Source: Candidatus Latescibacterota bacterium (lineage in GTDB: Bacteria > Latescibacterota > UBA2968). Taken from it: a DNA stretch of 64,000 bases. Where the stretch lies: NCBI GenBank assembly GCA_965205975.1, contig OZ242195.1, positions 2,784,001 through 2,848,000 on the forward strand. Direction: 5' to 3'. Below, piece by piece: positions 27,001 to 39,000 of the stretch. The stretch's first letter is position 1, and every line of letters starts with the position of its first letter. Position numbers: made by a program.

Positions 27001-30000
27001 GCGTGCGGGGAATAACAAAAACATCTAACATCGCGTAATAGGCAGAAACCTGGTCGTGTGGTATTTCACCCGTAAAAATCACTATATCCGAAAGACCGCG
27101 TTCAAGTGCCTCGCGTTGCAACGCCGGCAAATCTCGTCCACCACCCACAATCAACACTTTGAGATTGGCATACTGCGTGCGAAGAACCTCACACGCCTGC
27201 AACAACAACCGTAATCCCTCCAGCGACCGCACCAGACCGATATAACCTAACACCACATCGCTCAATTCAATACCTATGCGATTGGCAAGTTCACCTGACT
27301 TATTTTTGGGGGCATATTGCTCTATTGCTACCCCATTGGGCACCACGCCAATTTTCTCTTCGTCAACACCTTCGCGTATGCACTCGGCTTTTAATACCTC
27401 GGACAACGTCACTACTGCATCGGCTTGTCGCATCGCATTGACATGTTGCTCGTGCTGCTGGCGATACGCCTCTGAAGCGGGAACCAGCATCCCTTGCGCC
27501 ACACCGCTATCGTGCCACAACCCCCGCACCTCGTACACCACAGGCAGACCATAGTGATGCCCTATATCAATCGCAACCTGCGCGTTTCTACCCGGCGAAG
27601 CGGCGTGCAACACATCGGGTTTTTCCATTTCTATTGCCCGCGCAACACGCTTGCGAAAGTGTTGCTCCTGTCCCGCGTGATAGATTCGCGGAGTATCTGG
27701 TAATTGAAATTTGCCCAGGCGTTCTGATAGACGTGTGGTGTATTTTTCAGAAGTATTTCTCAAATAAGGCACTTCATTGATATATTCGACACCATCAGCG
27801 AGTTGTTCAGACACACCCCACCGCGTGAGCACCACAGGATCGAAGCCGAGTACTTTCTGCGTGTTGATGATATACTGGCTTCGCAAACTGTATCCGCTTT
27901 GTCGGTGTGGCAGCGAAATATCCAGAATATGTAGAATTTTCATCGCTCGATTCTCCAAGGATCGTAGGCATACAAGGGGTTCATCATCTACAATTAGAAT
28001 TTTCTACTCGCCCATTTGTTATACGAAAACAGCGAGTTTCTAAAAAACATATTGACGATTGTCATATAACAGGCATTCTGTTTTCTATTTAGGGCGTCTG
28101 GTAGGAGCGTAGAATTTCGATCTACTAACTCCTGGATGTGCTCAGGCGTCACGCCATAGATATTGCGAAGGGTATTGAACAGACCAATCAAATCTGTTTC
28201 ACAGCAGTTATTCGCTTTAGCCAGTGCTCTCAAATACACATCACCGATATGCGATAATGCCTTTGCTATTCGGGAGCGGGTTTCACTGACAGACTGAACA
28301 TCCGAAAGTCTGGAGGGCGCATCCCAACATGGTGTCACGGACCTGATCTTACGCAACACCGCCAGATGGTGATCTTCGCGGATCATTTCCACTTTAAAAC
28401 TACCGGAATAGACGGACAGCCAGTTCTCGACTATTTGCTTCTCATAAGACCTTCTGAAATCATCCAGAATGACCAGACCACCAATCTTGATCTGATCATA
28501 AACCTGGTAGAGACATGCCTCCCGACCTCGCAAGGTATAGACAGGCGGACCATCAATAATCACGCAATCCATCTCTTCCTCCCAAAACACCCCATCTTCA
28601 TAAGTCAAAAATTCCGCATCTCCATAAGATTCAAGTGTAACCGGACGATATTTGATCGATAGATTGCGCTTATCCCAGAATGATCTCATCAGACTCGTGG
28701 TCTCTGCAAAATTCCGCCAATCGCCTTCTATAGACAGAACCTCGGCTTCCGAAAACGCCATTGCCAGACGGATAGAACTCGGACCACTTCCAAATTCGAG
28801 AATTCTTTCTACTGGAGACATCTGACGAAGTAAAGTTTCTATTTTCTCAAACGCTGTCTCACCAATGCTCCAACCTGTGTTCAGATTAAGCTGTTCCGAC
28901 ATTTTGAGGTCTGAAATTTTATGCATTATTCACTTCTTTCTTCTAATAGCCATCATGTGCAAATACATACACATACCAGGAAGCCTGTTCTGGCCCTACC
29001 CCATTAGGGGGAGCATCACAATCCCAAATTTCAGCGAGTCGCGTCTTTTCCTGCTGGGCTTCCCGCTTAGAATTATAATGTCCCACAATCCTCCAATTTC
29101 TGAAGGAGCGATACCTGGATCGCCAATATCGCTTTCGCTCGTCAGGGTTCATAGTAATTCCAACTCGACAGGCCATATTCACTCCCCATGGTTTATGAGG
29201 TCACTTCCAAATCATAACGTCGCTGTAACAAAGACGCTTCTGCTTCTATAATTTCCATTCAAAGCCCAAAGCCTCGGTTCTTCTCGAACAGATTTAGTGG
29301 ATGATTCGCTTAAGAACAGGAGGCCTTGGGCTTTCAAAAGTTTGCGATTCCTATGATGCCACTTCCAGATCATATCGCCGCTGCAACAAAGACGCATCCG
29401 TCTCTGCAATCTCCATACATATCTCCATCGCCAGTTCATAGCGATAGCGCGTCTGTTCACAAGCAACAGGATTGGGATACATCGGATCACCCGTCGTCGT
29501 CCGCGCCTCCCAAAGACACCCGCCACCACACAAATTGCGCGCCCAGCACGTCTTGCACTCAGGCCGATTATTGACATTGAACTGCGCGTCAAAATGCTGC
29601 TGTTTTTCGCGATCAATACCCGCGAACACATCACCCATCTTAAACTCGGGCGCATCGGCCAAACTCGAACAAAAATAAATCGACCCATCCGCTGCAATCG
29701 CCAAATACTGCTTACCTCCCAGACACCCGTGACAGGATTTTTGGCGCGTCAAAAGTTTTTGAATCCTCGGATCAAACTCTTCACACTCTTCACCATTTAG
29801 AATAGCTTTGAGCGCACGTCGGCTCCGCCTGTAAATTTGCTGCTTCAAAACAGGTATGTGTTCTTCCCCAATAGCATAAGGCGCATCCGGTGAAACAACA
29901 GCCGAGCTAACAAGTGCGTTTTCAGTACCCAGAGAACGCAACGCATCGGCAATCTGATCCTCATCCATATCATACGCTGTCATAACAGCCTGCAGGTACA

Positions 30001-36000: not shown

Positions 36001-39000
36001 TGCGCACTCCTGGCCTTGATTCAGGTCCAACACCCGATAGACTTCGCCCATGCCCCCGGTTCCCAGATGCGCCTGGATTTGGTATTTGTTGTCGAGAATT
36101 GTTCCGTTTTCAAACATGATCTCTTCTACTTTCTTTAAGTCAGCAAGACTGAGGCGCAGTTTTTCCTATCGTATTTTTCAGACTCATCAAAAAACGGTGG
36201 AAAAACGTGGCATAAAGTACGTGACTTTCAAGATCACTGGGTACGCGTTTTTCTACGCGCGAAGGCATCCAGTTCATGCCGGACGGTTGAACTACTGGCG
36301 TAGTTGTACCCCGCTCGACCGGACAGTTCGGCATAGCGCTGCGTGGTCTGCAAGTTGCGATGACCGAGTAGCCAGCGCACTGTGCCAACACCCACGCCAC
36401 TGTTCACCAGCTCCGTCGCGACCGTGTGCCGAAGTTGGTGGATCTGGCATTTGACCTCTGCCTGATCACACAGCTTTGTCCATTGATAATACGCGCTTCC
36501 ATCCGCATTTCTCACGCACCTGCCACCTCAAAGGCCGTTATGTTGCGAGTATCCTTGCTGAACTCTACCCCGATCAGATGGATCGGCCGATCCAGACCCC
36601 GATATTTGTCCGCGTATCCCTTCTCCTGCAACTGCGCCATCGCCGCTCCCTCAGACGCCAGTTCCACCACCTTGAACTCGAACAGGTAGATGTTATCGTT
36701 GAAGTGAACAGCCATATCCACACGCCCATGACTGCTGCTGTCTTCTACCGTAATATTGAGACCCAAGCCCGCGAAATAGGAATAGAACACGCTGGCATAG
36801 TAGCCTTCAAATTTGGCGATGTCGTTGTTGGTGTACCACTCATAAGGGATACTGGCAAAAAAGGCGTGGAATAAGGTCTCCATGCTGGCGAAGTCGTTGG
36901 CTTCGAGCAGGCGGTAGAGTTGCACGCTGTTCGCCATCTGCTCAGACGGGTCTTTTACCAGGTAGTCCAACAGGCTCTCGTTGAGGCTCTGGCGCACCTC
37001 ACGGTTGGGATAGCCCAGCCAGTAAAGGGACTTGCCGCCGAGGTTCTCCTCACTGGTAATGGTCAAGTACCCGGTCTGAAACAACAGAGCCTCAGTCGCG
37101 ATTTCATCCACATCAAAGGTCGATAGCAGGTCGTTACTGCCCATCATCTCATCGAGTTTCAGAGAACTGACACGGCGTTTGAACAGGGTTTCGATGAGGA
37201 ACGTGGGCGTGCCGGTCTCGAACCAGTAGGCTCCGAACTCGCGGCTGTCGAAGAGCAGGAGAATATCGAAGGGGTTATAGACCTTCTCCTCGCCTCGCCA
37301 GCTATAGCCATTGTACCAGTCGCGGATCTTCCCTCGATCCAAGCCGGGAAGCTCGGGCGCGAACACCGTGTCCAAATCCGCATCGGTATAGCCGCAAACA
37401 GCCGAGTAGCGCGTATCCAATGTGATATCCTTCAGATTGTTGAGGCCAGAGAACAGACTCACCTTGGAGAACTTGCTGACGCCTGTGAGGAATGTGAATT
37501 TGATATGGGCATCGCTGTCCTTGATGGTCGCGTAGAGACCGCGCAGAAAATCGCGGTTGTCGCGTGCAACCTCCGGTACATCCAAAGCATCAAGTATCGG
37601 CTTGTCGTATTCGTCAATGAGAACAGCCACGCGCTGCCCACCCTGCCGATGCAATACCCGAATCAGATCACTAAAGCACTCCGGTGTCGTATCGTAACGC
37701 GGCGCAATACCGGCTTCTTCCGCTATGGTGTGTAGTTGCGCCATCACATTCGCATGCAGGTAGCCCTCGTCTTTGAAATTGCCCCTGCCAAAGCTCAAAC
37801 GCACAACGGGATAGCGAACAGACCAGTCCCAGTGGTCGTGGATGTGAAGCTCTTCGAACAGCGGTTCATTGCCCTCGAACAGTTCCTTTAGCGTATCCAG
37901 AAATAGACTTTTGCCAAACCGACGTGGACGTGATAAAAAATAGTGCTTGCCCTGGTCGAGCAGCCTCCGAATATAGGCGGTCTTATCCACATAGTAGCAG
38001 TTATCCTCTCGCATCTCGCGAAAGGTCTGAATACCGATGGGCAGTCTGCGTTTGGTCATATTATGCACCTTTGTCTTTACATCTCATCCAAAAGCGATTC
38101 TGTTATTTTTTGTTCTTTGGCATTCATCTAAGCATTTTCTGCCGTGTGCGGTCGATTTCCGCAGCCAGGAGTTCCTCGTCGGGTAGCGTGGTTCGATACT
38201 CTGCGGCCATCACTTTGTTCGATAATCCTTCGAGCGAGTACCGGGCAACTGCTTCATCTTTCTGCGAGCAGAGAATCAGCCCTACCGGCGGGTTTTCATC
38301 CTCGTGCGTCCAGTGTTCCCGTGCATAGTTGAGATAGAGGTTCATTTGTCCAGCGTCGGCGTGCGTGAATTTTCCGAGTTTCAAGTCAATGACCACCAGA
38401 CACCGCAGACGACGATGATAAAACAGCAAATCTATCCGATACCATTCGTCGCCAACACGCAGACGTTTTTGCCTGCCCATGAAGCAGAAATCCTCTCCCA
38501 ATTCCATGAGAAAAGTTTCCAGGTGCTTGATTAACGCATCTTCCAAATCGCTTTCGGAGTATTCGTCCTTGAGATCGAGAAATTCGAGAACGAATGGGTC
38601 TTTGATTTCCTCTTCGGGGAGAACGCGGTCTTCTGGCTGTGCCTTCTGGCCTTTGGTCAGCATGGCGGCTTTGTTCTTTGAAAGTGCCGTGCGCTCGTAG
38701 AACTGGGAGTTGATCTGTCGGTTGAGCTGGCTAATCGACCACCCTCCGCGCAGGGCCTCGGTTTCGTAGAACTCACGGGCGTTTATGTTCTTGATCGAAA
38801 GCAGTCGTACATAAGCGGACCACGGAAGAGGAAAGCGTGAGGCGATACTGGCCAAAGAAGATTCCGCTGATGTCTCCGGCATATTCTCTGTATCTCCCAA
38901 TTTTTCAGACGGCATCTGAAAAATTCGTTCGGATGGCCATAACAGATAGAATCTCCTCATCTGGCTCAGATTGACCGCTCCGAAGCCTCGGCCAAACCGC

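Follow-up and report, generated by a model that had tools for sequence, protein, structure and literature searches.

What product is made, and under what control, by a cassette in which a giant sigma54 activator, a small peptide with one Cys and a radical SAM (rSAM)/SPASM enzyme follow one another? The window, the 64,000-nucleotide stretch of a Candidatus Latescibacterota genome analysed here, contains one such cassette (Table 1). The genome-wide survey's note had claimed three paralogous cassettes (contig positions 2813351-2820117, minus strand; 2902620-2909555, plus strand; 3084810-3091598, minus strand), each with a regulator, a sigma54 promoter, a peptide of 58-59 residues and an rSAM/SPASM enzyme in that order. 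By tblastn the genome contains three complete enzyme and activator copies and no more, at those places; the order is present in all three, and the third regulator, reported as split, is broken by a frameshift near residue 240. The note had also proposed a new ranthipeptide-like RiPP. An RRE-bearing, CteB-like enzyme beside an undescribed one-Cys peptide upholds that part of the proposal, whereas the acidic tail suggested as acceptor is not supported. From the sequences, we put at about even the chance that the cassette defines a new family of sigma54-controlled, ranthipeptide-like RiPPs of Latescibacterota having a single ring with a variable interior.

The activator-peptide-rSAM order was found at 29 of 30 loci in one set and 30 of 32 in another, the two sets overlapping, and the cassette occurs in three families of the phylum. 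Peptide and enzyme are found together in 15 of 20 genomes of the same genus and are both absent from the remaining five; genomes carry two or three paralogues. In the sister genus the activator is present in 12 of 13 genomes and the enzyme in only 4 of 15.

Table 1 Features of the cassette and its surroundings (positions in the window)
Feature	Position	Strand	Remarks
Cassette, activator to peptide to rSAM	29351..36117	-	
Activator, 1605 aa	31300..36117	-	Pfam, catalytic motifs and TPR model
Most variable activator part (aa 750-900, TPR helices 3-5)	33418..33870	-	divergence tracks peptide core
Distal enhancer-like repeats	31252..31288	-	GTGTATC / GATGCAC arms; putative activator binding
Proximal enhancer-like palindrome	31171..31189	-	GTGTATC-N5-GATGCAC
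IHF-like site TCAAGCACTTG	31101..31111	-	40 nt before promoter in all three copies
Sigma54 -24/-12 promoter	31046..31061	-	TGGCAC-N5-TTGCA
Precursor peptide, 59 aa	30808..30987	-	GGAGG ribosome site
Candidate ring, Cys33 to Val40	30868..30891	-	fixed spacing; putative ring
RRE + rSAM + SPASM enzyme, 476 aa	29351..30781	-	
Accessory ORF, 77 aa	28943..29176	-	directly behind rSAM in 9 of 32 loci
SAM-methyltransferase-like accessory protein, 310 aa	27994..28926	-	single genomic copy
Same-strand downstream cargo	12605..27958	-	not a fixed cassette part

The enzyme has C116/C120/C123, the seven SPASM cysteines of CteB plus an extra one (C350), and Ser372-Ser373 after the Aux-I Cys. Its top PDB match, by sequence and by fold, is CteB of the SCIFF system CteA-CteB (PDB 5WGG; TIGR03974), with which it shares the layout of RRE, rSAM and seven-Cys SPASM domains and a small neighbouring precursor whose leader is short and of beta type. 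The NCBIfam scores quoted in the note were reproduced, each below its cut-off: 259 bits against 425 for the SCIFF maturase, 249 against 518.7 for the nif11-peptide maturase, 248.7 against 453 for QhpD, 230.7 against 340 for PapB and 112 against 349 for the anaerobic sulfatase maturase. A CteB/PapB/QhpD-related enzyme of this layout next to a precursor with leader and Cys points to the ranthipeptide class, and the RRE very likely binds the peptide leader. SCIFF membership was rejected given the score, the lack of a six-Cys precursor and the separate clade formed by these enzymes. In contrast to SCIFF, the enzyme (~30% identity) acts beside a peptide with one Cys rather than six, in the precursors a conserved leader and follower flank a hypervariable core, control is by sigma54, and there are two or three paralogues per genome. 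Four of the six residues in proximity to the CteB catalytic site (F, F, T, S, H, Q; PMC10288494, section 7; the papers cited here are drawn on in excerpt) are kept. Positions 5 and 6, His-Gln in CteB and His-Arg in PapB, are Ser followed by Ser, Ala or Thr in all 41 clade enzymes.

The peptide, as the note had stated, matches no Pfam or NCBIfam model, even at E 10, and the family is undescribed so far. It consists of a leader (K6 L7 L9 N11 G12), a variable pre-core, the core C33-X6-V40, and a follower of PxxPFP plus acidic tail. The description of the whole peptide as highly conserved had to be given up, as 117 peptides carry 80 different cores within a fixed C-X6-V-P frame. The Cys to Val/Ile spacing is seven in 116 of the 117, of which 107 have one Cys and 10 have two; the most distant peptides, aligned separately, do not keep the aliphatic residue at +7. 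In 21 genes pN/pS was 0.34 for the leader, 0.96 for the core and 0.16 for the follower, and no side chain besides the Cys is invariant inside the core. The 80 cores are a natural library on one near-constant enzyme (at least 88% identity within the genus), which argues for a macrocyclase that tolerates many cores and whose active-site signature differs from that of known thioether formers.

The chemistry put forward in the note, a thioether from Cys to an Asp of the tail as in PapB and QhpD, we consider very improbable. An Asp does lie at the near-fixed distance of +15 to +17 from the Cys in more than 95% of 116 genus peptides, and the enzyme reaches 249 bits with the QhpD model and 231 with that of PapB. 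However, the tail called invariant is specific to the genus: it is absent from all six sister-family and six more distant peptides aligned, although these cassettes retain leader and Cys and their enzymes are 42-53% identical. It also varies in length, one peptide ending early, and the first Asp is 14-15 residues from the Cys, past a Pro-rich run. A Cys-Asp link is also unlikely because Ser plus a small residue replaces His-Arg/His-Gln in 41 of 41 enzymes, the His-Arg pair of PapB having been modelled as holding the substrate carboxylate (PMC10739248). Assignment to the PapB (freyrasin; NF047865) or QhpD (TIGR03906) type was rejected: these belong to the same HMM enzyme group, but the peptide has neither CxxxD repeats nor an Asp/Glu acceptor near the Cys, and the annotated flanks contain no quinohemoprotein genes.

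It is somewhat likely that the enzyme joins the conserved Cys sulfur by a thioether to a nearby non-acidic carbon. The simplest acceptor would be Val at +7, where the fixed C-X6-V-P frame ends, or a neighbour; the ring would then close around six residues that vary freely, are mostly hydrophobic and contain a Pro turn, and PxxPFP plus the acidic run could act as follower or docking handle. Against this, the passages of PMC8326336 give Asp, Glu, Asn and Thr as the acceptors characterised in ranthipeptides, and never Val. Some other radical chemistry, in which the Cys does no more than anchor the peptide on Aux I, is possible though doubtful; candidates are a C-C or C-O link, an alpha-thioether, desaturation, epimerisation and Cys oxidation. 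The Ser-Ser loop, in place of the His-Gln/Arg found in known thioether formers, counts against the thioether and for this alternative, as does one of two tandem precursors at locus L117, which has Ser in place of Cys. There is precedent in CteB, where a non-reacting substrate Cys binds Aux I (PMC6231123), and in GggB and QmpB, which look like ranthisynthases but make alpha-thioethers (PMC10288494, section 7). The extra C350, which occurs in 21 of 41 clade enzymes along with the seven CteB-type cysteines, also favours it and could fill the Aux-I site needed for a substrate thiol; the structural model contains no clusters. Against it, all of the closest characterised relatives form thioethers, the Cys is the sole invariant core side chain and the anaerobic sulfatase maturase model scores just 112 bits. 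Cyclopropyl synthases (TvgB/TigE) are marked by a GYW motif and repeated Val/Ile cores (PMC10878394); this candidate was rejected since the enzyme sequence lacks GYW.

Distant loci raise another alternative, that the ancestral product was a glycosylated peptide with the Cys (or Ser) as glycosylation site and the rSAM enzyme acting elsewhere. Their order is activator, peptide, rSAM1, in some an RRE-like domain fused to GT9, a motif-less rSAM2 and GT4, and a GT2 gene is present in all 15 of the same-genus genomes that have the cassette and in none of the five without it. This reading is nevertheless improbable: cassettes of the window's genus lack rSAM2, RRE-GT9 and a fixed GT4 and still keep the Cys invariant, the GT2 gene of this genome lies at least ~1.7 Mb from every cassette, and common descent may be all that lies behind the 15 versus 5 split.

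The regulator was described in the note as kinase, AAA_16 STAND ATPase, GAF, sigma54 AAA+ and HTH, a list that is correct but omits a TPR sensor domain of ~400 residues. The domains are a Ser/Thr kinase (12-269), STAND ATPase (297-430), TPR superhelix (~700-1085), GAF (1118-1256), sigma54 AAA+ (1286-1532) and Fis-type HTH (1564-1601), with Pfam matches to Pkinase, AAA_16, TPR, GAF, Sigma54_activat and HTH_8. Among 22 full-length activators, HRD, the STAND Walker A and the R-finger are present in all and GAFTGA in 21, and the DFG position of the kinase is DLG or DMG. Walker A/B, GAFTGA, R-finger and HTH, with a -24/-12 promoter and a genomic rpoN, identify a sigma54 enhancer-binding protein (bEBP), and an AAA_16 NTPase that has Walker motifs and precedes a TPR superhelix identifies a STAND protein with a TPR sensor. 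The predicted TPR structure (pLDDT 87.7) resembles MalT domain III (1hz4; TM 0.61/0.69); the fold matches also include phage Phi3T Rap with its pheromone (TM 0.56/0.64). MalT and AfsR are inducer-gated STAND switches with a TPR sensor (PMC4381067, PMC6468293, PMC10936776), but here the output is a sigma54 AAA+ domain, and kinase and GAF are fused in the chain.

All three copies have a sigma54 promoter before the peptide (TGGCAC, GGGCAC or AGGCAC-N5-TTGC). The -24 GG, said in the note to be degenerate in two copies, is intact in three of three, variation being confined to the preceding base. The bare motif occurs three times in the window against 0.54 expected (none of 100 shuffles reached three) and 120 times genome-wide; with a relaxed pattern, a sigma54-type site lies 239-351 nt past the activator at 50 of 52 loci scored. 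Five of the eight genomic matches to the strict palindrome (plus strand and mirror) fall inside the three cassettes. The element between palindrome and promoter resembles the IHF consensus, and four IHF/HU genes are encoded. Very probably the activator binds the palindromic enhancer and, with IHF, opens the promoter for peptide, rSAM and cargo after STAND/TPR release; release would follow the MalT principle, and kinase and GAF would be additional inputs.

What the TPR domain senses bears on the role of the product. Residues 750-900 are the least conserved part of the activator (69.5% mean identity), and at one orthologous site (site B, 13 loci) their divergence correlated with that of the peptide core (r 0.55, p 0.001; the loci are related, so that p-values here exaggerate the significance). 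The value was unchanged without the commonest core class (8 loci), the partial r over 33 loci was 0.24, the flanks gave r 0.04-0.11, and aa 620-750 and the HTH, both moderately variable, gave 0.06 each. Nine of the top 12 variable TPR columns lie at aa 820-843, on one groove-type helix. The sensor thus appears to change in step with the peptide, as signal and receptor would. Counting against such matching, at 20 loci outside site B the TPR-to-peptide stretch tracked the core at 0.39 and the TPR at 0.24; the best single column for one core class sits in the AAA+ domain rather than the TPR; and the sister genus has activators without enzyme.

Nor do the loci support an activator dedicated to the peptide: at 13 of 16 loci of one set (L190-L200, L202, L203) activator and promoter precede other genes without peptide or rSAM, among them those for a second bEBP and TPR/GWxTD-type, LRR and WD40 proteins. 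The orphan at L203 is 87% identical to the TPR segment of the window activator, which also counts against matching, and the TPR alleles of orphans correspond to those of activators with a peptide, not to the peptides of their own genomes. Rather plausibly, the activator switches on envelope and secreted cargo in general and senses something else. The peptide would be one such cargo (used, say, in competition or directed at a host), and TPR and core would co-vary solely from being too divergent for recombination to homogenise. The flat values for aa 620-750 and the HTH and the clustering of variable TPR columns speak against this, and orphan activators would equally fit a listener role. The best single guess at role, a tentative one, is that the TPR domain of the activator itself reads the product, which would serve as an identity or autoinducing signal. 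More speculative still is a self-recognition circuit in which each cassette has its rSAM-cyclised peptide "dialect", read by the matching activator with positive feedback. Peptide-less activators would then be listeners that induce envelope proteins and eukaryote-like proteins with TPR, LRR or WD40 repeats, and the ring thioether would be made to an unactivated aliphatic carbon by a ranthisynthase active site in its Ser-Ser form. A sensor matched to its peptide would make this a case of modified-peptide signalling read by a STAND protein driving sigma54. A signalling role was proposed for SCIFF peptides (PMC8102284, citing Chen 2020). Streptococcal RaS-RiPPs likewise have a TPR-type peptide-sensing regulator (RRNPP/Rgg-SHP) beside precursor and rSAM (PMC13361665), but use a separate short unmodified peptide as signal and a small HTH-TPR regulator; no separate pheromone gene was seen at the Latescibacterota cassettes. 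At 13 sister-family loci an SBP5 gene (oligopeptide-binding type), whole or broken, lies directly upstream of the activator.

The methyltransferase-like protein is found near the cassette at 16 of 32 loci, in three of them split or partial, with a weak Methyltransf_24 match in relatives. The downstream cargo encodes GT4-GT28, GT4, three acidic double-glycine-leader peptides, a CAAX protease, a C39 peptidase-ABC exporter, HlyD, PpiC and sugar-nucleotide enzymes. It contains no sigma54 motif and is probably co-transcribed with the cassette here; its two further genomic copies each have their own motif. No exporter, protease or re-import gene is a fixed cassette part in this genus, and three of five cassette-free genomes have the site-B ABC membrane gene too. 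PADLOC gave no whole-system match to a known anti-phage system, only generic kinase, bEBP and rSAM domain matches, and none for the peptide, the 77-aa ORF or the methyltransferase-like protein. By their NCBIfam names the GPMC (geopeptide) system and the TOMM kinase/cyclase fusion also join peptide modification to a large regulator or kinase-ATPase fusion, and GPMC pairs with GT4; GPMC membership was rejected and all scores are far below cut-off, with 119.5 bits against 400 (rSAM), 199 against 1200 (regulator) and 277 against 706 (TOMM fusion). The cassette may underlie some of the antiSMASH "ranthipeptide" calls published for sponge Latescibacterota, which are given as of unknown function in the excerpt of PMC12993501. 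The host bacteria are marine and often sponge-associated.

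The cassette family is a radical SAM thioether-type RiPP relative with unusual regulatory wiring. As the genome-wide survey's note had claimed, three cassettes each encode a giant activator, a small peptide and a radical SAM/SPASM enzyme; relative to the window copy the enzymes are 91-92% and the activators 79-87% identical. The lack of any Pfam or NCBIfam model for the peptide was confirmed, as was the split of the third regulator, which is due to a frameshift (either true or an assembly error). Broken activators were found in 6 of 32 cases in the genus, with the breaks at differing places, and every such genome retains one intact copy. 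All three copies have GTGYATC palindromic repeats in the activator-peptide gap, an IHF-like site 40 nt upstream of the promoter and a GGCAC-N5-TTGC promoter motif. The GG of this motif is intact in all three, and thus the degenerate -24 element reported for two copies was not borne out. Genes for sigma54 and for four IHF/HU proteins are present in the genome, as are 120 GGCAC-N5-TTGC sites, which, judged by the motif, would constitute a large sigma54 regulon. The IHF-like site recurs, with its spacing of 39-40 nt, at two further sigma54 promoters (genome 4551680 and 3562315, both on the minus strand). The putative fourth copy of the peptide, at genome 5274074 (E 0.29), sits within another gene and was rejected, and Rfam gave no match in the window and four loci.

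Features of the cassette, of the adjoining repeated system and of related loci. Plain numbers are window positions; L numbers denote individual fetched loci.
Feature	Position	Strand	Remarks
Activator, 1605 aa	31300-36117	-	Pfam: kinase, AAA_16 STAND ATPase, TPR, GAF, sigma54 activator, Fis-type HTH
Precursor peptide, 59-aa ORF	30808-30987	-	No Pfam/NCBIfam model
Enzyme, 476 aa	29351-30781	-	Pfam: radical SAM, SPASM
Second repeated system, three copies per genome	22747-23812, 16080-21351	-	Other copies: genome 250433-259494, 2657093-2670969
Acidic peptides with double-glycine-type leaders	23591-23812, 23237-23464, 22747-23127	-	
Second radical SAM protein lacking the motif	L104:12211-13602, L105:6583-7983, L106:6141-7637		RRE region and part of SPASM Cys kept; usually then GT4
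Second radical SAM protein lacking the motif, further copies	L107:196-1572, L108:1096-2511, L109:10821-12287		
RRE-like N-terminus fused to family 9 glycosyltransferase	L106:3773-6160, L112:1136-3016, L105:8045-9409		N-terminus 40-44% to the enzyme's RRE region

In RNA libraries, the contigs of three runs, which had been preselected with part of the window stretch, were deeper over the enzyme, the peptide and a methyltransferase-like gene than over the activator, and some contigs carry other peptide alleles. Coverage in a fourth run was even throughout and DNA-like, so the depth pattern need not reflect transcription.

The peptide was present in 15 of 20 genomes of the genus (2-3 copies each) and the enzyme in the same 15. 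Among 35 loci from named genomes, 32 were close relatives (30 titled Latescibacterota, one Poribacteria and one uncultured), and upstream of the enzyme these had the activator in 30 and the peptide in 31 cases, the missing ones being at contig ends. In L052, whose contig bears the title Candidatus Poribacteria, the cassette is almost identical (92% for the enzyme), a sign of either inter-phylum transfer or mis-binning. A phylum-wide search of 168 genomes gave enzymes 43-54% identical in five further genera, plus one fragment, and 15 of these loci were fetched. In six (L099-L104) the activator is full and 40-41% identical, and a sigma54 site, a peptide of 64-75 aa and the enzyme are all present. 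Three others (L105-L107) combine the activator with peptide and enzyme, L105 showing breaks. In L109 insertion sequences precede the peptide and the enzyme, and the remaining five loci are truncated, fragmentary or distant. In a quick midpoint-rooted tree, from which 25 near-duplicate SCIFF-like rows were omitted, the cassette enzymes formed one clade (60 rows, SH-aLRT 98) separate from the SCIFF-like proteins (about 30% identity). Used as a profile against 1.84 billion representatives, the peptide alignment returned 14 matches, 13 of which were close family members or frameshifted forms and one an unrelated repeat protein; divergent peptides were missed and were reached only via the enzyme's context. 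The ESM Atlas gave no usable match for the peptide, one genome (G036) gave a weak peptide match without a cassette, and in 73 of 78 metagenome loci the enzyme was a distant one and no sigma54 domain of the activator lay near it.

Within the genus 117 of 120 peptide homologues could be parsed, the other three lacking the leader pattern. The Cys lies exactly seven residues ahead of a Val or Ile in 116 of the 117, followed by P-x-x-P-F-P and an acidic run (together the follower), and the six residues in between (the core) occur in 80 distinct forms. Over 21 genes pN/pS was 0.34 for the leader, 0.91 for the pre-core, 0.96 for the core and 0.16 for the follower (loci L044 and L064 were left out of this conservation and pN/pS set, and L044, L046 and L062 out of one variable-segment comparison, owing to pattern mismatch). 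The number of core forms and the contrast among peptide parts dispose of the worry that the whole peptide is uniformly conserved. The leader (hydrophobic-x-x-I/V-N, then D/G..G.I) is conserved in six sister-family peptides, whose Cys region is C-x-W-P-x-F-[PR]-[VIL]-L-P-P-P; here too an aliphatic residue stands at +7. The acidic tail is absent from all six, and five have a second Cys further upstream. More distant peptides retain only the leader and S-C. The leader presumably resembles that of SCIFF peptides. At one locus (L117:228-711) two tandem precursors precede one enzyme, and the second has Ser for Cys.

The best match of the enzyme both in sequence (E 3e-59) and in fold (TM 0.73; model pLDDT 92) was CteB, the SCIFF maturase, and the thioether-maturase HMMs, which the survey's note had listed as the best NCBIfam models, all scored below cut-off. 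Four of the six residues used to profile CteB in section 7 of PMC10288494 are matched (F124, F163/164, T199 and S222). The last two profile positions are Ser and Ser/Ala/Thr in 41 of 41 clade members; in the SCIFF-like rows they are His (23/24) and Gln/Arg (23/24). Passages of PMC10739248 model the equivalent His-Arg of PapB, an enzyme linking Cys to Asp or Glu, as holding the acceptor's carboxylate, and call the pair highly conserved in thioether formers; the positions were equated by alignment to CteB and their common place after the Aux-I Cys. The replacement of this pair counts against an Asp acceptor. The proposal that the maturase joins the Cys to the acidic tail is probably wrong, and we consider a Cys-Asp link most improbable. 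The replacement also makes the chemistry less certain: the predicted product is a local thioether from the Cys, which we favor with modest confidence, and some other radical chemistry by the enzyme seems rather unlikely. An extra Cys (C350) in 21 of the 41 enzymes could close the Aux-I site, which is described as open in CteB (PMC6231123).

In its working the cassette resembles a ranthipeptide system; the membership tests applied place it outside the SCIFF, PapB/QhpD, cyclopropyl synthase and GPMC families. Passages of PMC13361665 describe regulated radical SAM-peptide operons adjoining TPR-type regulators in streptococci, and SCIFF peptides have been linked to quorum sensing in passages of PMC8102284 and PMC8326336. 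No published account of the cassette was found in a literature search that covered few subscription papers. The text of one supplement of PMC10288494 gave no match (its enzyme dataset may still include the clade), the passages and five supplements searched of PMC12993501 contain only antiSMASH ranthipeptide calls in sponge Latescibacterota, and the passages seen of PMC7470986 hold nothing specific to the cassette. The system is undescribed in the literature searched.

Kinase, STAND and AAA+ motifs are retained across 22 full-length activators. Residues 680-1110 were modelled as a nine-repeat TPR superhelix; among the structure matches shown, MalT domain III was best by target-length TM-score (0.61/0.69), beside many generic TPR proteins. 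MalT-type STANDs are opened by inducer binding to the TPR sensor (PMC4381067, PMC6468293). The activator varies most at aa 750-900, and distances in this stretch run parallel to those in the peptide core, which lies 2.4 kb off. For the 13 loci of one orthologous site this stretch correlated with the core at r 0.55 (p 0.001), versus r 0.04-0.11 for aa 620-750, aa 900-1100, GAF, AAA+ and HTH, and r was still 0.55 in the 8 loci left once the commonest core class was removed (p 0.03). The partial r across 33 loci was 0.24 (L054, which has an insertion sequence and is mis-aligned, was left out of the final correlation). Two results are points against TPR-core matching. Across the remaining 20 loci the core was followed more closely by the intervening DNA (0.39) than by the TPR stretch (0.24; partial 0.19, p 0.04), and the top single column for one core class lies in the AAA+ domain, although 9 of the top 12 are at aa 820-843, inside the TPR stretch (718 tests on related loci). 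A similar pattern would result if both stretches escaped homogenisation. Complex prediction with the TPR region and the unmodified peptide scored 0.01 (mark 0.32), which weighs on neither side. That the activator reads a self-matched cyclic-peptide signal is offered as a doubtful proposal. In locus L040 (4208-7489) the activator has lost its entire TPR sensor and some of GAF through an in-frame deletion of about aa 657-1169.

The activator and its promoter form a portable head. In the sister genus the activator is found in 12 of 13 genomes and the enzyme in 4 of 15, and in 13 of 16 fetched loci the head instead precedes genes for a second sigma54 activator, for TPR or GWxTD-type proteins, for LRR and WD40 proteins, or for DUF218. 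The variable TPR segment of the window copy is matched at 87% identity by one of these orphan activators. Such orphans could be listeners, or their sensor could have no connection with the peptide. In 13 loci of the sister family, both with and without the peptide, the activator is preceded by an intact or broken gene of the oligopeptide-binding family SBP5; this genome has no close relative of it. A short sensor-less sigma54 activator follows the radical SAM gene at one site in 12 loci (L001:13677-14657, genome ~2909676-2910656), and similar genes stand behind peptide-free heads in L190, L191 and L193; a cascade is possible.

The window cassette continues on the same strand into a glycosyltransferase/double-glycine-peptide/C39-exporter cluster (12605-27958); both other genome copies of this cluster carry a sigma54 motif of their own, and the window copy carries none. 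The repeated system contains GT4-GT28 plus GT4, acidic peptides with double-glycine-type leaders, a C39 peptidase exporter, HlyD and PpiC, and may represent a separate family of glycosylated RiPPs. Its exporter was rejected as that of the cassette: it has its own double-glycine peptides, two copies lie away from cassettes, and a relative occurs within 8 kb in only 1 of 32 loci. Behind the radical SAM stop, at 29193-29334 (minus strand), are an inverted repeat of 74 nt with arms at 29320-29334 and 29261-29275, which occurs nowhere else in the genome, and a diverged duplicate of the final 66 nt of the enzyme gene; the arrangement looks like a recombination scar between paralogues. GT2 3'-end remnants lie upstream of the third copy's activator (genome 3091643-3091723; 89% over 27 aa) and, by eye, of the window's (~36150-36185, minus strand), and these two copies seem to have moved from a GT2-linked site that is empty in this genome. 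An integrase/restriction-type island also lies upstream of the window activator.

Behind the enzyme, at several sites of the genome, lie a 77-aa ORF (9 of 32 loci; only unnamed clusters in the ESM Atlas) and the methyltransferase-like gene (16 of 32). The latter, also found away from cassettes, occurs in 13 of 15 cassette-bearing genomes of the genus and the GT2 gene in all 15, versus none of the five cassette-free genomes in either case, splits that could be due to kinship. The distant families have the gene order peptide, first radical SAM enzyme, sometimes an RRE-like-GT9 fusion, second radical SAM protein and GT4, a gene content suggesting that the ancestral product was glycosylated. In 6 of its 7 aligned copies the second protein, a paralogue, has lost CxxxCxxC entirely; it is possibly a pseudo-enzyme adaptor. 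Downstream of the cassettes, two loci (L060:2141-7443 and L044:11377-17426) carry arrays of very acidic, Cys/Pro-rich proteins of 150-200 aa with a common leader ending RGG, interleaved with M16 peptidase pairs and, in L044, also with a C39 exporter.
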